A stretch of DNA of 64,000 nucleotides. It comes from Escherichia coli. GTDB lineage: Bacteria; Pseudomonadota; Gammaproteobacteria; Enterobacterales; Enterobacteriaceae. Position 1 is the stretch's first letter, and every line of letters begins with the position of its first letter. The translations under genes were made by a program, and so were the position numbers. Below are positions 26,425 through 36,834 of the stretch, piece after piece. The notes beneath the pieces were generated by a model. That model was not told where the DNA came from. It did not search any database and saw nothing but the letters and a program-made list of their open reading frames with translations. The stretch lies in assembly GCF_050320075.1 (NCBI RefSeq), contig NZ_CP190018.1, one strand, 5' to 3'.

Positions 26425-26911
<487 letters not shown>

Positions 26912-27240
26912 TTTGTTCTCCTTAATTATGTAAGGAGTATTTGATCATGTATAAGCAATGGAAAACAGCTTTAGGTAATAAGGAATATCTCAATTATTGA
27001 ATATTTAGTGCGAATTATTTAGTACAAAAAAGCAGCGTTGCGTGATCTTTCCCTGCCCTTTATTCATAAACACATGGATATGGTGATCAACGGTGGTCTG
27101 ATGGAGGCGCAGAGCCTGAGTAATCATGACTGAATTTCAGCCTTCAGAAGCCAGAAAAATGGCTTTAATACAATCGCAGCCCCGCTTTTCACAACATTAT
27201 GCTTATAATATGAAAAATATCTTGCCTTGCATCTTTGTGC

Positions 27241-27720
27241 CTACGGCATTGGATGATCTTTCCCTAACCTTATAGTTTCTTTTAGCCTTTCAAGCCTTAG
27301 CAATTCAACCTCGGCTTTAATATAGCCATGTGAGGCAGCCATTTTCAGCCAATTAATTGCATTATCTAAATTATAATATTTTAAATAGGAATCATCCTCC
27401 TCTGAGGATAGAATCATAGCATAATTATATTGCGCTATGATATTTCCTTGAGATGCAGACCTTGCCAGATATTTAATTTGCTTGGGTATATTAAAGCAAA
27501 CATATGTATAATATTGATGTAATCGATATGACGCATCACCATCCCCGCCCTCAGATTTAATATCAAGTTCATATCTTTGATTTTCACTTAAATTAAACGA
27601 TTCAGATGTTGAGCTTATTTCAATGTTATGGAGCTTAATAGGGGGGGGGATTTCACCTCCATATGAACAACAAGAGAAAAAGAAAACATTTGCAATCAGA
27701 ATAAATAAAAAGCACTTCAT
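27241..27720 (-). CDS. Secreted Sel1/TPR-like repeat protein; candidate immunity protein for the adjacent orphan Rhs tip
   Basis: Signal peptide (MKCFLFILIANVFFFSCC), Sel1-like repeat signatures, immediately downstream of the orphan tip; AT-rich. Confidence 0.55.
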   Translation of the reverse strand: MKCFLFILIANVFFFSCCSYGGEIPPPIKLHNIEISSTSESFNLSENQRYELDIKSEGGDGDASYRLHQYYTYVCFNIPKQIKYLARSASQGNIIAQYNYAMILSSEEDDSYLKYYNLDNAINWLKMAASHGYIKAEVELLRLERLKETIRLGKDHPMP

Positions 27721-27733
27721 GTTGCCACCTTTG

Positions 27734-28725
27734 TTATTTTATATCACTTGGTCTCATAACTTTGCCAGGAGTGGAAGAAATGGGTTGACCTGAAGGTCCA
27801 AACGTTATCCAGCGGCCCATATTATTACCAGTTATGACATTATTACTTGTGTCAATTGCCGAGATATTATCCGTAAGTCCTGTTTGGATCGTATTAAAAA
27901 GAGGAGTATTATTATCCCACGCCATCCATACTTGCCATTGTGTATCAGCTCCAGTGACATTTGCATGAAGTGCTCTGGCTAACTTGCTGGCAAAAGATTT
28001 ATCTCCCTCTCTGGCTGTACCACATGAGAATAATCAAACAGACATTCCCTTTTTATAGCGTGGATTAGCTCTGATTCTCTTGGCTAATCCCTCAGCAGTT
28101 TCATAGTTTCCATTTTCATCTGTAATAAAACCAGGATATCCATGTCCTCCAATAGTAAAAACGCCAGGAATATTTATTTTATCTGTTGCAGCATGCAGTG
28201 ATACATTTCTGCGTATCCCCTCATCATAGAAATTCATATCAGCTAATCCAAAAGGGTCTATATACTGAACCGGATTCAACGGATACTCATAAAAATTCCA
28301 TCCCCCCTTCAGCCCAATCGAATCCTGAGTGATATACCTCCCCTGCAGCGGGTCATAATAGCGGTGGCGGTTGTAATACAGGCCGGACTCCTCATCATAC
28401 TGCTGACCCGGCAGGCGGATGAGTTGCTGCAGCTGTTGCGGGTTCTCTTCATTCAGCAGGTTGCCCCATTCATCGTATTCTGCGCACCATTCTGTTGCCC
28501 CTTCCGTGCTGATAAGCACCAGCGGCAGGCCGCGATGGTCGCAGTGGTACAGGTGGATTTTTCGCGCCGGCGTGTACACCGGGTCCATCTGGTTTTGCAT
28601 CTGCTTCACCGTCAGGCCGCACGATGCCAGCCAGCGGCGGCTTTCCTCACTCACCCGGTCAGCCAGGATTTCACTTTCCAGCCGGTCGAGCATCTGCACC
28701 GTGCCGGCGGGAATCCCCCACTGTG
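27734..28725 (-). pseudogene. Orphan rhs fragment: last part of the Rhs core plus an unrecognised C-terminal toxin domain, interrupted by one in-frame TGA at 28034-28036
   Basis: 28258-28700 is near-identical to 33108-33550 of the full rhs gene; the tip diverges after the DPxGL-type motif (here YIDPFGL); track ORFs 28034-28699 and 27734-27925 are in the same frame, separated only by TGA. Confidence 0.75.
28258..28700. repeat. Copy 1 of a near-identical direct repeat (about 443 bp), the rhs core 3' segment in the orphan fragment
   Basis: Collinear with 33108-33550 at constant offset 4850 with few mismatches. Confidence 0.85.
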
Positions 28726-28740
28726 CATAGGCAACTCACG

Positions 28741-29583
28741 CTATGAACGCTTCAGCTTATCAATAGCGGAAGTTATAATTTCATTGTCATCAAACTTGTA
28801 CAACATAGTATCTAAAACAGGAAGTAGCGTTTTATCACCTAATTCACCCGCAGCTTCAATGATATCATCATAAACAGTATTTTTTTTTAACTCATCGCAT
28901 AAAACAGATAAAACCCTTTTATCTTTTCTGTAGGAAAGTCCGATTATTGCTTCAATACGGACTTCCTCATTTTTATCCTGAAGCATCTCCACAAAACAAT
29001 CCCTAATATCACTATTATCATATTTATTGATATTTATTGCAAATGCGGCCCAGTTTCTGACATCTCCATTTGGATCTTTTAACAGATTAATCAATAGTGG
29101 AATTGTTGCTTTATCATTGATAACAGAAATAGCAAATGCTGTAGCACGTCTGACATTAGTCGATTTATCAAAAGCAGTAATTTGAGATTGTTCTACTATT
29201 TTAGGTGAATAAATTGGGTTTTTCTTGCATCGCTGAGCCGTTGACTCGATTGCCGTAGCTCGAACGCAAGCGCTCTTATCATTCAATGCCATATTGTTCA
29301 AAATATTAAACACATTATCTTTGCATTTTTTGCAAATTTTTATTTGCCCGAGTATAAATGCTCCGATATCTCTACGGATATAATTTTTATCAGAGCAGAA
29401 CTCAATTGCCAATCTAACAGCGTCTTGACCACCTCTTAACTGTAATACTCTGGCAGATGAAATCCTTTTCAAGGAATTGTGATCATCAAGTAAGCGAAAT
29501 AATTCATCATCATTTAGTTTCTTACATTGATTATATAAACCATACTCTTTACTTGCCTTTCTTTTCTGGTATGTATTTGACAT
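28741..29583 (-). CDS. HEAT-repeat protein (YibA-like), immunity-type gene in the Rhs array
   Basis: Repeated D/N-x-x-VR-x-x-A motifs; GGAGG RBS 6 nt before the ATG at 29583; about 280 aa like the rhsA-linked YibA. Confidence 0.7.
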   Translation of the reverse strand: MSNTYQKRKASKEYGLYNQCKKLNDDELFRLLDDHNSLKRISSARVLQLRGGQDAVRLAIEFCSDKNYIRRDIGAFILGQIKICKKCKDNVFNILNNMALNDKSACVRATAIESTAQRCKKNPIYSPKIVEQSQITAFDKSTNVRRATAFAISVINDKATIPLLINLLKDPNGDVRNWAAFAININKYDNSDIRDCFVEMLQDKNEEVRIEAIIGLSYRKDKRVLSVLCDELKKNTVYDDIIEAAGELGDKTLLPVLDTMLYKFDDNEIITSAIDKLKRS

Positions 29584-29687
29584 TGCAGGAACCTCCATAA
29601 AGACTATCTTTTTCTATCGTTTGACTGTCTGGAGTCCTCCACCTACTCTGCCATCAGCACACACGATGTTTGTTTATCCTTACATAC

Positions 29688-29954
29688 TTATTTTCCGTGG
29701 CCAAAATTTAGAATTCTCCCGTCATTTTTGCCTATTTCTATAATAAAAACCCTACCAGCAATTTGGTCTGATTCAATGGTGCCTTCAACAATCCAACTTG
29801 TTGGTAATTCCATGATTTTGTATGGTTTTTCTTCTTCTGCGGCATCATGCCCATAACGATTTTTAACATACATCTCAGCTAATTCCAATGCTATAGCTTT
29901 ATTTTTTACCAAATTTCTAACGGTGTATTTCCCCTCACATTCATACTTGCGCAT
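29688..29954 (-). CDS. Small cytoplasmic protein paralogous to 31553-31900; immunity-like candidate
   Basis: 88 aa; shares ALEL..Y.K..YG...E.KPY.I.....W.(I/V)EG....G..F.I.I.K.DG pattern with the 115-aa protein. Confidence 0.45.
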   Translation of the reverse strand: MRKYECEGKYTVRNLVKNKAIALELAEMYVKNRYGHDAAEEEKPYKIMELPTSWIVEGTIESDQIAGRVFIIEIGKNDGRILNFGHGK

Positions 29955-30035
29955 TATAATAATATTATTACACTGCGCCCATGTGTTGTATGTAAAAACA
30001 AAGATACAATCACATAGGTTCTGAATAATATTTTC

Positions 30036-30401
30036 TTATACGTTGTCATGTATTTTGCAAACATTAGACAATCCTTTTCCATTTATTATATCTTTCCCAT
30101 GATTATCTATTGCTTTAAAATTTTCACCTATTGACCTTGAATTACTACAATCACTTCCAGTGAAATCTGAGTTATTCAGAATAGCATTCATCAGAGCCGC
30201 ATTGTGAAAGACAGCATTTCTAGTTGATGTATGTTGAATCATTACATTTCTTAAATGAGTTTTTTCAAATTTCGCCCCATCAAGACAATAACCATTGAGG
30301 GTGGCACGATGTAGATTCATCCCGCTAAAATCATATCCAGCAAGAGTGGTACTATCTATCTCAAGAAATTTATTGGTTATTAAAAATGCGATTCTTATCA
30401 T
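30036..30401 (-). CDS. Pentapeptide-repeat protein (about 121 aa)
   Basis: Tandem five-residue repeats of the A(D/N)LxX type; GGAGG RBS 5 nt before the ATG at 30401 (track uses TTG at 30413). Confidence 0.6.
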   Translation of the reverse strand: MIRIAFLITNKFLEIDSTTLAGYDFSGMNLHRATLNGYCLDGAKFEKTHLRNVMIQHTSTRNAVFHNAALMNAILNNSDFTGSDCSNSRSIGENFKAIDNHGKDIINGKGLSNVCKIHDNV

Positions 30402-30439
30402 CTGTTCCTCCAATCATCTAACTCCTGAAAAATTTGAAA

Positions 30440-30600
30440 ACCAGAACCTCGCTTAGGCCTGTGTCCATACTACGTGGGTAGGATTATTCTGCGTACTACG
30501 CTGTTGTCCCTTACGTGCTGATAAGGGCTGGCAGGTTTCCGGCTTGCTTCGTTGAGTTCACTACGCTAAAGCTCCGTGTCCACATAACCCAGCTCGGAGG
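30440..30600 (-). pseudogene. Degenerate rhs core fragment
   Basis: Translation GNLPALIST*GTTA*YAE resembles the core segment [22 protein letters not shown] but carries in-frame stops. Confidence 0.45.
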
Positions 30601-30649
30601 CATGACCTTCTCTGGTTCGTTCCATCTAAAATGTCTATAACTGACATGG

Positions 30650-30970
30650 TTATTCAATTATTTTTTCTTTGAGTTTATTCTCAATCCAGCGGTCTTTATA
30701 CCTGATGAGAATTTGACATTCACCAATATTATCAATGTCACCAACATTTGTGTTTCGAATTTGACCAACAGCAACTATAGTTGATTCAAAACATTCAACA
30801 TTGACTTTATCTGTTATTATTGAAACTATATAATCATCTGGAATGGAGCCATTAGGTATTATATTAAAGAAAGTAACATCGGTAAATACTAAATAACCAT
30901 TTTCTAAGTCTTCATTATTATAAAAATTCCATTCTGTTGTACCATAGGCTATCCTTGAGATTAAATTCAC
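30650..30970 (-). CDS. Small cytoplasmic protein, immunity-like candidate; GTG start overlaps the stop of an upstream 27-codon tip remnant (GTGA)
   Basis: 106-aa AT-rich ORF; 4-bp stop/start overlap with the preceding short ORF, as in toxin-immunity pairs. Confidence 0.4.
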   Translation of the reverse strand: MNLISRIAYGTTEWNFYNNEDLENGYLVFTDVTFFNIIPNGSIPDDYIVSIITDKVNVECFESTIVAVGQIRNTNVGDIDNIGECQILIRYKDRWIENKLKEKIIE

Positions 30971-31092
30971 CTGAATTCTAATTTGTTTGCTCCATAAATC
31001 AAATTCAATTTTTTTATTGGTCGATCACCAAGATATATTCTATCAAACATATTACCCTCTATTCTAAAAATACTCAGGCATTCCACACATTA

Positions 31093-31420
31093 TATCAGCC
31101 TCATCTTGACTGCTTCCCGTTTCCCGATACGGCGGTGCGGGGAGTCATAAAGGTAAGAAATTTCCAGCAGTACGGCGTCCTATTGTTCACGGCGGTAATG
31201 CACCAGCCAGTATTGGCTATCGTAGTGATAACCGTGTAATCTGCCGCCGCATCGCGTATCTAATGTTCATTCTTTTCCATAAACCGTCCGTACACATTGT
31301 GATAGTAAAAATACAATACATCTTCGCTGATGCGGTTATTCTGCTGCATGTGGGAAGCGCCGAATACTGCTCCCGGTATGGCCAGTAATTACTATTTAGT
31401 ACGACGTTAGGGGGAGTCAC
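31093..31420 (-). pseudogene. Degenerate rhs core fragment with stops and frameshifts
   Basis: Translation ...GRLHGYHYDSQYWLVHYRREQ*...YLYDSPHRRIGKRE resembles core [17 protein letters not shown]...[13 protein letters not shown]. Confidence 0.45.
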
Positions 31421-31552
31421 TTAATCTCACAGATACTTCAAGTAACAGATGAAAATCGCTCCTGAAATGAAAAAGAAATTTTTTTGAATGTGTTCCTGTC
31501 AAATCAAGTGGTTTTTTCGTCGATATGTAGAGTCATATTGTACACAAAATAG

Positions 31553-31900
31553 TTATGAAACACACCTTGGTAAAATATTTGAATCGTCTGAACAGTGGAT
31601 TATTTTGTGTATTACATCCAACGCTTGCCCATCTTTTTTCGCTATTAGTATTGTAAAATTTCCTCCTAACGTCTTCGGTTGTTTTCCCTCGATTTTCCAA
31701 CAATTATTGTCATCTGTAATACTATATGGTTTCTGAAATTCTGCTTTTTCTTTCCCGTATATATATTTAATATAAACATATGATAATTCCAAAGCCATTT
31801 CACGACTATTTACTAAAATTTCCACTGAATTTTCTTTTCCAAATACTGAGTGTGATATTGTAAACAATATCATAATAAGTAATATTAGTGAGTTTCTCAT
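31553..31900 (-). CDS. Secreted small protein paralogous to 29688-29954; immunity-like candidate
   Basis: Signal peptide (MRNSLILLIMILFTISHSVFG) and shared motif pattern with the 88-aa protein. Confidence 0.5.
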   Translation of the reverse strand: MRNSLILLIMILFTISHSVFGKENSVEILVNSREMALELSYVYIKYIYGKEKAEFQKPYSITDDNNCWKIEGKQPKTLGGNFTILIAKKDGQALDVIHKIIHCSDDSNILPRCVS

Positions 31901-31912
31901 GCTCTACACCTA

Positions 31913-32047
31913 TCGAATCTCAAAAGTTGTGGGTAAAACATTACATTCAGAATATATGATATTCTTACCATCGGAATCCATTTTTCCAAATCGACCTTCT
32001 GGTGTTCCTGGATACCCATTAAGAACATATTTTTTCGAATAGTTAAT
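31913..32047 (-). pseudogene. Start-less remnant of a toxin C-terminus (about 45 codons)
   Basis: Open frame ...YSKKYVLNGYPGTPEGRFGKMDSDGKNIIYSECNVLPTTFEIR ending 10 nt before the next gene; no start codon. Confidence 0.3.
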
Positions 32048-32068: not shown

Positions 32069-32638
32069 TTATTTTTCTTCACTACGAAGCAGTTCATGCT
32101 GTACTTTTGTTAAACATTCGTAAGACTCATCTTTGTTCGGGAGATGTGCTGTCATTCGAGCATAAGTTGGCTTCTCATCTTTAAAATATTTAACCATGAT
32201 TGAATTATCAAGGACTGCCAACAACTGAGCTGGATCACTGCTCTTTTTTTGATAGATACCCGCTCTTATATAACTTCTAAACCGATCGCCGAGAAACGCC
32301 GTTTTTTCTGCTGTATTTAGCAACTCCTGCAACGTTCCTTTGGTTGCATGATTTTCATTAAGGCGTAGTGATCCGACGCGAATTAAGAGTCTCGCCCCGC
32401 TTGGTGTGAATTTGTTATTTTTACATATACCAAGTTCTGTTTGCCAATAATACTCACCTATGTCCTCATTCTGATACCATCTCCACATGGTTTTATTATT
32501 TAAGACAGGAAACGCGGAAAAAATAGTACCCTTAGTGAAAATGGTAAAGCAATCTTGATCTTTAGCTTGTGTTTCGCAATTAGCTATAACACCAAAACTA
32601 ACGAATATCATCAGCAAAAAGAACAAAGCTCTTTTCAT
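32069..32638 (-). CDS. Candidate cognate immunity protein (RhsI) for the main Rhs toxin; secreted or lipoprotein
   Basis: Start overlaps the rhs stop by 4 bp; N-terminal signal peptide ([21 protein letters not shown]); AT-rich. Confidence 0.6.
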
Positions 32639-35600
32639 TTTCTTATTCCTCTCGATGTTCTCTGTTTCATTTTAGCTAAAATTTCACCCAAATCATCTAT
32701 CCCTGCTGTTGCTGGCCCATCGGGTTTATTAATGTCTGGGAATAAATAGGGTTCTGCACAAGTATATCCTGGTGGTAATTGAGTTGTTGGCCAAGTTGTC
32801 TGTGGCAGGTAATCACTTGCTGTCTTTGTCTCCATCCCTGGATACTGGGGATCATCCTGCGGCGTACAAGTCAGATTGGGTTTTACCCACTTCCTGCAAT
32901 ACAGTGTGTAATCGTAAGGACTTAATGCTCTGAAGAATGTTTTGAAAACATTAGGCGCACTACTGGCCTGGTCAATAGGATATGGCAGTCTTAATTGTTT
33001 CGCTATGTCTGGCAACTTACTTGGATCGGGCGTAGGCGGTTTGTTGGGTCTCGCTCCATATCCGCCATTATTTAAGTGTCCATATTTAGATGCCAGTCCC
33101 ATTGAATCTATATACTGAACCGGATTTAACGGATACTGATAAAAATTCCATCCCCCCTTCAGTCCAATCGGATCCTGAGTGATATACCGCCCCTGCAGCG
33201 GGTCATAATAGCGGTGGCGGTTGTAATACAGGCCGGACTCCTCATCATACTGCTGACCCGGCAGGCGGATGAGCTGCTGCAGCTGGTGCGGGTTCTCTTC
33301 ATTCAGCAGGTTGCCCCATTCATCGTATTCTGCGCACCATTCTGTTGCCCCTTCCGTGCTGACAAGCGCCAGCGGCAGGCCGCGATGGTCGCAGTGGTAC
33401 AGGTGGATTTTTCGCGCCGGCGTGTACACCGGGTCCATCTGGTTTTGTATCTGCTCCACCGTCAGGCCGCACGATGCCAGCCAGCGGCGGCTTTCCTCAC
33501 TCACCCGGTCAGCCAGGATTTCACTTTCCAGCCGGTCGAGCATCTGCACCAGCACCGGCGGGAACACCACACTGCCACCGTCTTCGCCGCCGGACTGCTG
33601 AAGGGCATCCGCCAGGCTGCGGCGCTGCGTTTTCGCCAGCTCACCGGTGGCGGTTTCAACTCTGATGAGTGGCGTGAAGCTCCCCGGCTGATAAACCGTC
33701 TGGATGCGGGTTCTGTCGTTCTGTATCGTGGTCAGCCGGTCGCCGTCCCAGCCGTACCAGGTCACTTCCGGTTTCCGTGACAGCGACATCCAGCCCGTCA
33801 GGTCCCGTTCACGCCGCCATACCCGTTTTGCCACCCTGCGGCCCAGCGGGTCGTAAAGATAGCGACTTTCGACCAGCGGCTCTGCATATTGTGTCCGCGT
33901 GTAGTGCACCAGCCGGTGCCGGCTGTCGTAATGATACCGGTGAGTCCGCTCATCATCCGTGCGGATAACCCCTTCCGGGATGAGGTCGGTTTTCTCTGTC
34001 AGCCTGCCGTGACGGTCATACCGGTAAAGATAGTGCGCGTCACGGGCGATACGGTTATCCGGCCACATGCTGAGGGTGCTGTCCGGGTGCAGCTCCGGGT
34101 CGGGCAGGCGGTTGCCTGCCGGGTCCGTGGCATACGGGATGCGGATATCCAGGTTCGCTGCCGTGGTGTGGACGCCGGTCAGCCTGCCGGTGTCGCTGTA
34201 GCTGTAACTCCGGGTCTGGCGCGGGCTGCTGATGCGGATGAGTTCGCCGTTGTCGTTCCAGGTGTAATCGCGGTCATACTGCAGGCTGTTCAGGTGCTGG
34301 CTCTGTAACTGCCCGGCAGAGGTGTAAGCGGTGGTGAGTTCATAACGGCCGAAGCTGCGCAGCGTTTCCCGGTGCAGGCGGTCGCGGGTGTACTCCACCA
34401 GCGGTGTGTCGCCGAGTTTCATGCCTGACAGCCAGCCGCTGCCGTAGGTCAGCCATTCCACGGCGGGCAGGCTGTCCGGTATACAGCGGTTCGCCAGTCC
34501 CTGCGCGTTGTAAGCGTGTCTGGTTTCATGCTGCCAGAGCAGTGCTTCCGTCTGCGGGTGATGCACCGTCTGGCGCTCACCGGTCAGGCGGCCTTTCTCA
34601 TCATACCCGTAATGCACCGTCACCCGGTGGCCTTCGCTGAGATGGCTGATGCCTGTCAGCCAGCCGCGTTCGTCATACTGCCACTGCTCTGCCGGTTCAC
34701 CATTCACCGTTCGCTGTGTGATGCGGTCTGCTTCGTCATAGTGCCAGTGGGTGACCAGCCCCTCATCCTCGCTGCGGATAAGTTTGCCGGTCAGGTCGTG
34801 GTGATAACGCTGTGTGCGGCCGTCAAAGCCGGTTTCCTGTATCAGCCGGTCAAGTACATCGTAACGGAAGGTGGTGTGGCTGCCGTTTTCACTGGTCAGG
34901 CGGATGACCCGCCCGGCAGCATCGTATTCCATACTGCGCGTCAGACCGCCCTGCGTGGTACGAACGGGCTTTCCCCACGCATCGTACTGTGTCCCGTTTC
35001 TGCTGCCGTCCGGGGCAATGACGGCGGTCAGGTCACCGGCGGCGTTGTATTCATACCGCGTTTCATGGCCCTGCGTGTCTTTCACCGCAATTAACTGTCC
35101 ACGGCTGTCGTATGCGCGGTACTGACTCAGCCCTTCCTCGCGGTGCACCGCCGTCATCTGACCAAAACGGTCATGGTCATAACGGGTTACATAACCGGAA
35201 CAGTCAGTGACGGTCAGCAACTGACCGTAACGGCTCCATGTCATGGTTTTCCGGCTGCCGGTGGCATCCTCCGTTGCGCAGGGTAAGTCACTGTGTGGAT
35301 TATCATAACGGTAGCGGGTGATATCGCCGTTGTGTGCGGTTTCCTGAATCAGACGGCCGGATTCATCATATTCCCGGCGCAATTCCAGCCCGTCAGGCCC
35401 GGTGGCTGACGTTAACTGGCTGTGGTGGTTATAGTAAAATGCCGATGCCCTGCCATCCGGTGTGGTGATGCGCGTGATGAGTCCCGTCACCACATCCGGG
35501 CTGTACTCAGTCGTCCGGCCTGCGGCATCCGTCTGTGCCTTAAGCCTGCCCACCGCGTCAAACTGACTCTGCGTGACGCTGCCGTCCGCGTGTTCCTTTT

Positions 35601-36834
35601 TCACCACCCGCTTCAGCCCGCCTTCGCCCTGCGTGTGCAGCACTTCACGGCGGTCCAGACTGTCGGTGATGGTGATGCGGTCTTTCTCATACTGATACGT
35701 GTAGCTTAAGCCTGCCGGGTTTAGCTGCTCTGTCACCCGCCCGTCGCTGTCGTAACGGTAACGGATTTCTGGCCGGCCCGCGCGGTGGTGCGCCACCATC
35801 CGGCCCCGGTATTTATCATCGTAAGTAAAGCTGCGCACCTGTTTGCCACTGCGGTCATACACCGCCGCCAGTTCGCCGCGTGGCGTCCAGCCATAGCGCA
35901 CCAGCGGCGCGGCAGGTAAATTCTCCGGGTATTCCGGGTCGTGTGTCAGCCACACGGCAGACAGACGGATACCGTTGTCCCGGCCATATTCCGTGTAGTC
36001 CGGCAGGGTATCAGGAAAAGCGGACGGTTCCGTCCCGCCGGAAGAGGCCTGCTGCCGGGCCTCTTCTGCCCGCTGCGCCTGCGTGGTCAGTACCAGCCGG
36101 AAGTGACGCCCGGCACCATCCGTCACGCCGGTGATTTCGCCGCTGAATTCACCGCCAGCCTCACGGTGAAACGTCTGTGTGCGCCCGAAGCGGTCCACCA
36201 GCCCGGTCAGTACCCGGTACGGCGGCAGCGGCGCGGGCAGCACCTCATCCGCTTCCGGCACCCGCTCACACCAGCCGAGCAGCCACCACGGCCCCTGCGG
36301 ACTGTTTGTCGCCAGATAACGATGCGGACTTAAGCGGAGTTCTTCCGGCAGCGCCTGCCAGAGTGCGGTCAGCCGGTGACCTTCATCCAGTTTCAGGACA
36401 CCGCCACGCACCAGCCAGAGTGACTCGCTGCGGCTGTAACCGTCCTCACCGGGAAACAGGTGCTCAAAATACAGGCTCCTGCCGCCGTTATCACTGAGTA
36501 TCAGTGTGTTATCGCGCAGCTGTAGGCGGATATCCGCAGGCATTTTCCAGCCGGGGCCGAGGCTCCCCACCGGCGCGGGCGTTTTTGTCCGGTAACTGCT
36601 GTAGGTGCGGGAGAGGATGAACGGCAGCGGGCCGGGCAGGGCAAGGTCGGTTTCGCCGGGAAGGACCTTCGCGCCGAGCAGCGGATTGACCGGATGGCCG
36701 GACGTCACCCCGCCGGGGCACACCGAACAGGCCACGCCGGTGGGGGCACCAATACGTACCCCGGCAGAACCCTGAACAATGCTACCGCCATACTGCGTCA
36801 TGTCGCCCTGACGCGCCGCCGGTTTTCCGCTCAT
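32635..36834 (-). CDS. rhsB: Rhs family protein (RhsB-like) with PAAR-motif N-terminus, YD-repeat core and an unrecognised polymorphic C-terminal toxin domain (about 32638-33107)
   Basis: 1399 aa; N-terminus [11 protein letters not shown]; numerous YD repeats; core ends at a DPxGL-type motif (YIDSMGL) after which sequence diverges from the orphan copy. Confidence 0.93.
33108..33550. repeat. Copy 2 of the direct repeat (within the full-length rhs gene)
   Basis: See 28258-28700. Confidence 0.85.

Follow-up and report, generated by a model that had tools for sequence, protein, structure and literature searches.

The rhs gene of the window (the whole 64,000-nucleotide stretch of Escherichia coli DNA that was analysed) and the small gene overlapping its stop codon probably encode a cognate Rhs polymorphic toxin and immunity pair that would act in the periplasm or envelope of the target cell. 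We put the probability of this reading at roughly two in three. The original prediction, which took an exported immunity protein as a sign that the toxin works in the periplasm or attacks the envelope instead of nucleic acids, is supported, although we infer toxicity, protection and the site of action. Judged by sequence, the pair is the ybfO tip and YbfC module of strain K-12, and as a sequence it is already known, an identity that the original prediction did not name.

A full-length rhs gene at the nikR-yhhJ locus

All features described here lie on the minus strand. The rhs gene (32635..36834) encodes a protein of 1399 amino acids, recognised from the list of open reading frames, the NCBIfam RHS_core equivalog and Pfam repeats, and occupies the E. 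coli nikR-yhhJ (rhsB) locus. The RHS_core equivalog covers residues 1–1247 with 2633 bits, and Pfam places DUF6531 at residues 46–123 (E=1.4e-17), more than ten RHS repeats along the body and an RHS match at residues 1143–1179. In identical genomes the RefSeq label is 'RHS element core protein'. [quoted passage not shown] Of the 'typical PAAR/YD-repeat body' that had been described, the RHS repeats and the core are borne out by Pfam and NCBIfam; the PAAR domain is not, the literal P-A-A-R standing alone with no Pfam match even at E<=10.

The Rhs-associated core ends in ...YIDSMGL (residues 1170–1247; 33094..33327; TIGR03696, 80.5 bits). By analogy with studied Rhs proteins, this end is presumed to be the autoproteolytic boundary that frees the tip, with the cut after ...GL. 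The protein has the hallmarks of an Rhs element, namely a YD/RHS-repeat shell and an associated core closing in a (D/x)xxGL-type boundary, here YIDSMGL. Neither vgrG, eagR nor any other T6SS gene is found in the window, where the flanks are occupied by housekeeping genes (nik, yhhJ, rbbA and others), and delivery by a T6SS is therefore assumed.

The predicted toxin tip

The C-terminal toxin tip comprises 152 amino acids (residues 1248–1399, ending RGIRK; 32638..33093), as delimited by the reading frame and a drop in GC content. Its length agrees with the 150–160 codons predicted to follow YIDSMGL. The predicted span of 32638–33107 is correct at its start, and its other limit is moved to 33093, as position 33107 lies inside the YIDSMGL motif. 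The GC content falls from 0.61–0.64 in the core to 0.36–0.46 in the tip and immunity gene, which fits the expectation for an Rhs core extension. A variable tip of differing composition, followed at once by its cognate small gene, is the arrangement characteristic of Rhs polymorphic toxins, and the identical tip is found on another Rhs backbone (K-12 ybfO).

As had been claimed, the tip belongs to no nameable toxin family: no match was returned from Pfam, NCBIfam, PADLOC, PHROGs or PDB sequences. Homology to a known nuclease or deaminase family, which would have spoken against an envelope toxin, was looked for in Pfam, NCBIfam and PDB sequences and none was found; nor did these profiles or the fold give any nuclease, deaminase or ADP-ribosyltransferase (ART) signature.

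Alignments of homologues define a conserved toxin-domain core at tip residues 36–152 (32638..32988), with the motif SPYDYxxYCxxW...C...DYxP...PxGYxC..P..F and a C-terminal helix bearing A130/D134. C112 is invariant and C66 is present in every homologue covering that position, while one homologue (P0009) has Tyr in place of C76. The acidic residues D61, D94 and D134 are conserved, and E114 is lost in distant homologues. The alignments contain no column of conserved His, and the single His of the window tip falls inside the variable N-terminal linker. The first ~35 tip residues are proline-rich and poorly conserved, and the tip has no hydrophobic segment. The terminal ...RGxRK before the stop codon is also conserved among homologues; this may derive in part from the Shine-Dalgarno sequence and ATGA of the next gene, a constraint on the nucleotides, and it was consequently set aside as a functional protein motif.

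In a variant of the main reading, differing in chemistry alone, the tip would be a previously undescribed enzyme that degrades the envelope, such as a hydrolase of peptidoglycan or lipids, and would act catalytically in the manner of Tae, Tge and Tle instead of as a stoichiometric binder. The conserved cysteines and D61, D94 and D134 are compatible with this, and, of the characterised T6SS effectors that act in the periplasm and have Sec-exported immunity proteins, most are enzymes, as with Tae, Tge and Tle. However, the core is small (~115 aa), E114 is not retained in distant homologues, and no hydrolase match was obtained from Pfam, PDB or the fold search. The cysteines are conserved but have no conserved His to pair with, unlike those of NlpC/P60-type amidases, and identity as a Cys-His amidase (Tae, NlpC/P60-like) was rejected. 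We regard a catalytic tip as less likely than not.

An AlphaFold2 (AF2) model of the tip alone, made with 13 close homologues, gave no usable fold (mean pLDDT 41, blocks 33–46). A fusion of the tip, a GS linker and mature YbfC was modelled with medium confidence overall (pLDDT 63.9, pTM 0.52); the block-mean pLDDT is 65–77 for tip residues 61–120, and the beta-rich YbfC part lies mostly at 70–92. In this model the tip has strands at residues 65–72, 87–91 and 111–116. The higher pLDDT of the tip in the fusion may reflect the deeper alignment and not an interaction with YbfC. A fold search with the fusion, the sole model good enough for this use, returned no informative match and no hint of activity. 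Because the domain is small, lacks a Cys-His pair and bears no motif recognisable as metal-binding or nuclease-like, action as a stoichiometric binder or by membrane perturbation is slightly favoured over that of a classical hydrolase for the candidate toxin.

The predicted exported immunity candidate

The immunity candidate (32069..32638) is an open reading frame of 189 amino acids that is 93% identical to K-12 YbfC and carries the RefSeq label 'protein YbfC'. The 4 bp overlap with the rhs stop that had been noted is the ATGA at 32635–32638, shared by that stop and the start of the 189-aa gene. A Shine-Dalgarno-like GAGAGG (32648..32653) sits in the last tip codons (R-G), 9 nt before the ATG. 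Judged by its conservation from Escherichia to Delftia, a dN/dS of 0.26 and its RefSeq annotation, the reading frame is a real gene. In PMC6033998, ybfC is listed as a 'putative secreted protein', and ybfC and rhsC transcripts were detected, with higher levels in Shiga toxin-producing E. coli (STEC) strains from cases of HUS.

The signal peptide that had been proposed for this protein is corroborated by a rule requiring a basic n-region, a hydrophobic h-region and small residues at -3/-1. The predicted leader, of the SPase I type, spans residues 1–19 (32582..32638) and consists of MKR, a 15-residue hydrophobic core and a final A, giving V-I-A at -3/-1, with the mature protein starting at NCE; the best 12-residue Kyte-Doolittle mean is 2.85. 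A basic-then-hydrophobic leader is seen in all eight full-length immunity sequences (window, Citrobacter, Phytobacter and distant) and in 21 database homologues. A lipoprotein reading of the window allele was rejected, as I-A-N-C, with N at -1, is no canonical lipobox ([LVI][ASTVI][GAS]C). At the same Cys, K-12 YbfC has I-A-D-C and eight homologues, with source labels that include Citrobacter, Kluyvera and Salmonella, have a lipobox-like L/M/I-A/S/G-S/A-C; this leader-end Cys is missing from the most distant homologues.

In the mature protein C30 and C175 are invariant, and the family shares the motif E-[YF]-x-W-x-x-E-x-G. Searches of Pfam, NCBIfam, PHROGs, PADLOC and PDB sequences gave no family match for YbfC. 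Among the relatives found in AFDB for the YbfC part is a protein from Salmonella that its source calls 'Periplasmic protein'.

An exported partner could also be reconciled with a cytoplasmic toxin directed at nucleic acids or translation if YbfC intercepted it in the periplasm before it crossed the inner membrane. The T6SS can leave cargo in the periplasm, from which some Rhs/CDI toxins then cross the inner membrane, and the proline-rich, poorly conserved segment of ~35 residues at the tip N-terminus could be an entry segment. Nevertheless, we know of no precedent for purely periplasmic immunity against a cytoplasm-acting T6SS toxin, and such an arrangement would leave the producer unprotected if caged toxin leaked. 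The conserved toxin cysteines suit an oxidising compartment and, as described above, the tip bears no nuclease, deaminase or ART signature. These points make a cytoplasmic target improbable.

Relation to K-12 ybfO/ybfC and distribution

The tip is identical to that of K-12 at 149 of 152 residues (98%), and the 189-aa protein at 175 of 189 (93%). K-12 ybfO (b0703, an Rhs fragment) and ybfC (b0704), at the rhsC locus, encode the same tip and 189-aa protein, and likewise overlap in ATGA. The K-12 tip, however, is borne on an orphan fragment of 478 codons 3' of rhsC, in an ybfO annotated as a pseudogene, whereas the window tip belongs to a full-length rhs that lies at nikR-yhhJ. Of 5426 complete E. 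coli genomes, 3613 carry the pair, among them K-12, B/BL21, EC93 and O157:H7; in an annotation-based sample, ~30% of carriers have a full-length Rhs as in the window and ~70% have orphans. An allele of >=99% identity occurs in 284 genomes, strain 7/2 being one example with this full-length rhs. Against K-12, dN/dS is 0.10 (tip) and 0.26 (ybfC), which indicates purifying selection on both. No functional paper on ybfO or ybfC was turned up by a literature search, and no function is recorded for either. In an in-silico study of enterohaemorrhagic E. coli (EHEC), the protein called RhsCI (z0853), which may be the O157 copy of ybfC, gave no significant match, only a weak TPR match with an e-value of 0.21.

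The toxin domain was found by profile search in 27 clusters among 1.84 billion representatives, preceded by an Rhs core in all matches long enough to read. Searching the 1.84e9 representatives by profile, together with a 5.8e9-cluster database, contributed only about a dozen divergent sequences, so that this small family offers no basis for a deep alignment. A YbfC-type gene lies directly downstream of the tip in every inspected locus with both genes intact, and every intact neighbour inspected is of the YbfC family, with an N-terminal signal peptide and the conserved Cys pair. In five loci the tips are 33–39% identical and the intact neighbours 19–31% identical to YbfC, and the pair has been kept across Gamma- and Betaproteobacteria at 19–39% identity. 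One partner is broken or split in three loci (L009, L010 and L020). In L020, the rhs with this tip type has vgrG immediately upstream, and in L011 vgrG/DUF2169/PAAR adjoin the array. A YbfC scan of genome contigs gave eight loci, four of them in named Enterobacteriaceae genomes; the others are one Citrobacter metagenome-assembled genome (MAG), one Escherichia sp. draft and two short E. coli-like contigs, which are in MAGs labelled Flavobacterium and Nanosynbacter and are probably contamination.

The high proportion of truncated ybfO-type fragments, the pseudogene annotation in K-12, the broken copies in other genera and a lone ybfC beside ISAs1 in Citrobacter and Pseudocitrobacter might suggest a decaying or inert orphan remnant devoid of present toxicity, with YbfC having an unrelated periplasmic role. 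We consider this very improbable. The window tip is carried by an intact 1399-aa rhs, the dN/dS values remain low even against the K-12 orphan, and the pair is retained over the phylogenetic range given above; moreover, lone immunity genes are the expected mark of defence against a live toxin.

Proposed mechanism and comparison with known systems

In the mechanism that we propose for an envelope-acting pair, the YD-repeat shell of the 1399-aa Rhs would enclose the 152-aa tip, with self-cleavage after ...YIDSMGL. A T6SS spike encoded elsewhere in the genome would carry the Rhs into neighbouring cells. The conserved domain of ~115 residues, with three short strands and a C-terminal helix, would reach its folded, oxidised state only in the periplasm, where it would damage an envelope target. 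The YbfC-type protein would be exported via Sec by its leader (residues 1–19) and, as a disulfide-braced beta-sandwich (C30/C175), bind and block incoming toxin in the periplasm. Since the toxin would stay caged and reduced until it is exported, the producer could do without immunity in the cytoplasm. An exported immunity protein is equally compatible with several envelope targets.

The Tai, Tgi and Tli types of immunity protein have a Sec leader or a lipobox, and their producers need no cytoplasmic immunity. The window pair would share the logic of Tae/Tai amidases, Tge/Tgi muramidases and Tle/Tli lipases, in which exported immunity neutralises the toxin in the periplasm. Most Tae, Tge and Tle toxins are enzymes that travel as independent cargo, have known folds and use catalytic Cys-His or Glu/Asp residues, whereas the window toxin is caged as an Rhs tip, lacks a conserved His and has a fold that could not be recognised. 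Among these immunity proteins, Tai3 is cited in PMC7216683.

A further parallel is Tse5 (RhsP1) of Pseudomonas aeruginosa, which like the window tip is an Rhs-encapsulated C-terminal toxin, and which, as we infer for the window tip, is directed at the envelope rather than nucleic acids. Tse5-CT is hydrophobic, helix-rich and membrane-inserting, and its partner Tsi5 is a membrane protein. The window tip lacks a hydrophobic segment, and its partner is predicted to be a soluble beta-sandwich, differences that set the two apart as far as Tse5 is described. Tse5, with Tsi5, is presented as a pore-forming Rhs toxin in PMC10684867.

The window rhs also resembles the E. coli Rhs-CT1 to CT10 of Ma et al. 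2017, reviewed in PMC6730261, in being an E. coli Rhs whose C-terminal toxin is polymorphic and is followed by an immunity gene. In having no adjoining vgrG or eagR it is like their 'neighbourless' Rhs-Nb class. The characterised toxins of that set are a metallopeptidase, a DNase and an RNase with Pfam domains; the window tip has none and would join the 'unknown' clan. In the polymorphic-toxin discovery paper, PT4 and PT6 act in the periplasm.

Possible implications for the Rhs repertoire and E. coli lineages

The Rhs tips studied so far are for the most part nucleases or enzymes of other kinds that act in the cytoplasm (PMC6730261). A periplasm-acting tip with an unrecognised fold, if true, would be a new activity for the Rhs repertoire. 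A more speculative and, on balance, unlikely extension is that a disulfide-dependent tip of new fold kills non-catalytically, by binding to an essential machine of the periplasm or outer membrane. Lineages would then be armed where the rhs is full-length, as in the window strain and O157:H7, only immune where an orphan ybfO-ybfC is kept, as in K-12, B, BL21 and EC93, and susceptible in the approximately one third that have neither gene. If this were so, the pair would be a major determinant of displacement between E. coli lineages.

The module is very common, with about two in three complete E. coli genomes carrying it, yet ybfO and ybfC are without recorded function. As both ybfC, the immunity candidate, and an orphan toxin copy are present in K-12, the hypothesis is testable in standard strains. 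A function for ybfO and ybfC, if established, would assign two y-genes of K-12 and possibly reveal a new envelope target.

The Rhs tip and its overlapping gene

The window covers the rhsB locus of the E. coli chromosome, which lies between nikABCDE-nikR and yhhJ-rbbA; these flanks match strain 7/2. A minus-strand open reading frame (32635–36834) encodes a 1399-residue Rhs protein, of which the last 152 residues (the tip; 32638–33093, minus strand) follow a ...YIDSMGL boundary. The rhs stop overlaps the ATG of the next reading frame, which encodes 189 residues (32069–32638, minus strand), in a shared ATGA, and a Shine-Dalgarno-like GAGAGG lies 9 nt upstream of that start. Residues 1–1247 match the NCBIfam RHS_core equivalog with 2633 bits; TIGR03696 spans residues 1170–1247 and ends at ...YIDSMGL, and Pfam identifies DUF6531 (46–123), many RHS repeats and the RHS domain. 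The PAAR/YD-repeat body of the original prediction is therefore borne out for the repeats and core; PAAR occurs at the N-terminus as literal letters at residues 5–8, with no Pfam PAAR domain.

The GC content is 0.36–0.46 in the tip and downstream gene versus 0.61–0.64 in the Rhs core, and an AT-rich segment of this kind is what typically marks an Rhs core extension. The unusual tip and overlapping gene are accordingly real and lie essentially where they had been placed, as the reading frames, core boundary and GC drop attest. The tip is a foreign C-terminal part of the rhs gene, joined at a boundary motif. Its family ends near-invariably in ...R-G-x-R-K and the stop; the codons of this end (window 32638–32655) also hold the Shine-Dalgarno-like sequence and the ATGA, so that translational coupling, acting on the nucleotide sequence, may account for part of the apparent protein conservation.

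Distribution in E. coli

Judged by its identity with the ybfO/ybfC module of K-12, the pair is far from rare. In MG1655 an identical-type tip ends ybfO (b0703), a 478-codon orphan fragment downstream of rhsC that is annotated as a pseudogene. The window tip matches the ybfO end at 149 of 152 residues and the 189-residue protein matches YbfC at 175 of 189, with the same ATGA overlap in K-12. The 1039-bp segment comprising tip and gene is present in 3613 of 5426 complete E. coli genomes, with at least 99% identity in 284 and 95–99% in 3323. In a sample of 60 evenly spaced matching genomes, 58 gave full-length matches; by annotation names, the tip is carried on a full-length 'RHS element core protein' in 17 of these 58, a set that takes in the O157:H7 group (~97%) and every allele with at least 99.9% identity to the window. 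By the same names it sits on an orphan fragment in ~70% of the sample, K-12, B, BL21(DE3) and EC93 among them. Compared with K-12, dN/dS is 0.26 for ybfC, against 0.10 for the tip and 0.09 for the core next to it, which indicates purifying selection on both tip and ybfC, the immunity gene being the faster-changing. Given these values, the reading of the module as an inert remnant, with which the pseudogene annotation of ybfO would fit, is a less likely one.

Two short contigs (L003 and L004; 1.4 and 2.4 kb) carry an E. coli-type ybfO-tip/ybfC, with tips 97–98% and YbfC copies 93% identical to those of the window. They are assigned to MAGs labelled Flavobacterium psychrophilum and Candidatus Nanosynbacter, a placement that is almost certainly binning contamination.

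Downstream of the pair, the minus strand at 26477–32000 carries rhs debris together with an array of genes that are likely orphan immunity genes. This stretch includes a 115-residue protein with its own signal-peptide-like start (31553–31900; RefSeq 'NTF2 fold immunity protein'), a DUF6258 protein (30650–30970), a pentapeptide-repeat frame (30036–30413) and a second NTF2-type frame (29688–29954), the last two annotated in the identical strain 7/2 as a split pseudogene and as frameshifted, respectively, followed by the HEAT-repeat gene yibA (28741–29598) and, at the far end, an ISAs1 transposase fragment (26477–26911). An orphan Rhs fragment of 221 residues (28034–28699, minus strand), with a different short tip after ...YIDPFGL, precedes a 159-residue protein (27241–27720, minus strand) with a hydrophobic, Cys-containing N-terminus, MKCFLFILIANVFFFSCCSYGG...; together these may form a second toxin tip and its candidate immunity protein, exported or a lipoprotein. 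We take the order of yibA, rhs fragment and small protein to recall what follows rhsA in K-12.

Family searches and gene neighbourhoods

Neither the tip nor YbfC matched Pfam, even at E<=10, NCBIfam, PADLOC or PHROGs, and single-sequence and profile searches of PDB sequences returned nothing for either; 15 tip-family and 12 immunity-family members scanned singly against Pfam also gave no match. By these searches the tip, originally described as unrecognised, belongs to no described toxin-domain family. A literature search yielded no function for ybfC or ybfO. Computational work on EHEC Rhs pairs found only an insignificant TPR hit for RhsCI (z0853), a possible ybfC copy (PMC7216683), and a STEC transcriptome paper names ybfC a 'putative secreted protein', with higher expression of ybfC and rhsC in STEC strains from HUS cases (PMC6033998).

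A tip profile searched against 1.84 billion representative proteins returned only 27 clusters. Wherever a hit is long enough to be read, an Rhs core and a DPxGL-type boundary precede the domain, and no delivery scaffold other than Rhs was seen among these readable hits. Divergent copies, 33–39% identical in alignments, come from Delftia and from genome and metagenome contigs, with Paracidovorax added from AFDB. All five divergent loci fetched have a gene for a 188–197-residue protein directly downstream, overlapping or within 2 nt, the products aligning with YbfC at 19–31% identity; a translationally coupled gene has been retained beside the tip over deep divergence.

ybfC also occurs alone, beside ISAs1, in Citrobacter and Pseudocitrobacter. 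Homologues of 70–71% identity in a Citrobacter MAG (L005, 1660–2226) and in Pseudocitrobacter vendiensis (L006, 8001–8567) have no toxin tip upstream and neighbour an ISAs1 (H-repeat) transposase. This looks like the pattern of an orphan immunity gene, which the IS element may have relocated. In AFDB50, uncharacterised ~185-residue proteins of the planctomycetes Stieleria and Roseiconus and of Lentisphaera have the fold predicted for YbfC (TM 0.56–0.62, 12–15% identity), and the immunity fold may thus reach well beyond Proteobacteria.

The putative immunity protein and toxin domain

The signal peptide predicted for the 189-residue protein is a Sec-type leader conserved in distant family members. 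The downstream proteins of the five divergent loci each open with a basic-then-hydrophobic leader and a small-residue end site, and leader ends in divergent YbfC-type proteins include ...NASA/M, ...PAFA/E, ...LILYA/E and ...SALA/C. Invariant across the family are the cysteine pair C30 and C175, W54, and E62, W65, E68 and G70, the last four within the motif E-[YF]-x-W-x-x-E-x-G. Enterobacterial members have a second pair, C21/C72. A lipobox-like L/M/I-A/S/G-S/A-C is found at C21 in eight homologues, several source-named Citrobacter, Kluyvera or Salmonella; position -1 is D or N in the Escherichia alleles, which by rule excludes them as lipoproteins.

Tip residues 1 to ~35 are proline-rich and variable, and alignments place the conserved core at residues 36–152. 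Only P107, G109, C112, A130 and D134 are strictly invariant in the divergent alignment. The motif SPYDY-x2-YC-x2-W and residues D94, P97 and F118 are kept in most sequences, with few exceptions; C66 is present in every sequence covering that position, and C76 is Tyr in one homologue (P0009). No histidine is conserved in the alignment and distant members lack E114; these points speak against a Cys-His amidase or protease and lend no support to a nuclease. The domain keeps its cysteines and shows none of the features of a nuclease. A less likely reading retains the exported YbfC but places the toxin's action in the cytoplasm, with YbfC intercepting it in the periplasm.

An AF2 model of the tip alone had a mean pLDDT of 41. 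A fusion of tip, 30-residue GS linker and mature YbfC was modelled from an alignment of 11 pairs plus unpaired sequences, ten of the pairs each being adjacent genes of one locus and the other, proteins P0013 and P0065, only presumed to share a contig. This gave a mean pLDDT of 63.9 and a pTM of 0.52. The YbfC part is mainly beta, with block means mostly 70–92; tip residues 61–120 form three short strands with block means raised to 65–77, and the C-terminal helix of the tip is near 50. The rise in tip pLDDT stems from the partner or the deeper alignment, the two not being separable.

Proposed mechanism and comparison with known systems

An exported immunity protein and a toxin of the periplasm or envelope had been proposed for this pair, and that interpretation holds up computationally: the tip probably acts in the periplasm. 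It would be cut off inside the Rhs shell, delivered by a T6SS encoded elsewhere and activated in the target cell's periplasm, an oxidising compartment, where it would harm the envelope, and periplasmic YbfC would bind and block it. Since the tip is small and shows no catalytic signature, an action by binding or by perturbing membranes is slightly preferred to hydrolysis; that this domain, outside the described families, is a novel enzyme is a serious alternative.

Like other Rhs polymorphic toxins, the locus combines a shell and a core boundary with a variable tip and a cognate gene beside it. T6SS linkage is absent within the window. In relatives, vgrG lies directly upstream of an rhs bearing a YbfO-type tip (locus L020), and an array at another locus (L011) is flanked by vgrG, DUF2169 and a PAAR-like gene. 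The window locus resembles the 'neighbourless' Rhs genes, without adjacent vgrG, that form a separate class in a review of E. coli T6SS, in which the characterised E. coli Rhs tips are metallopeptidase, DNase and RNase (PMC6730261). In where immunity acts, the pair is like the periplasm-acting T6SS pairs Tae/Tai, Tge/Tgi and Tle/Tli, and P. aeruginosa Tse5 is likewise an Rhs tip directed at the envelope, the aim proposed here. On this reading, ybfO/ybfC would be a toxin-immunity family of unrecognised fold that is unusually easy to test.
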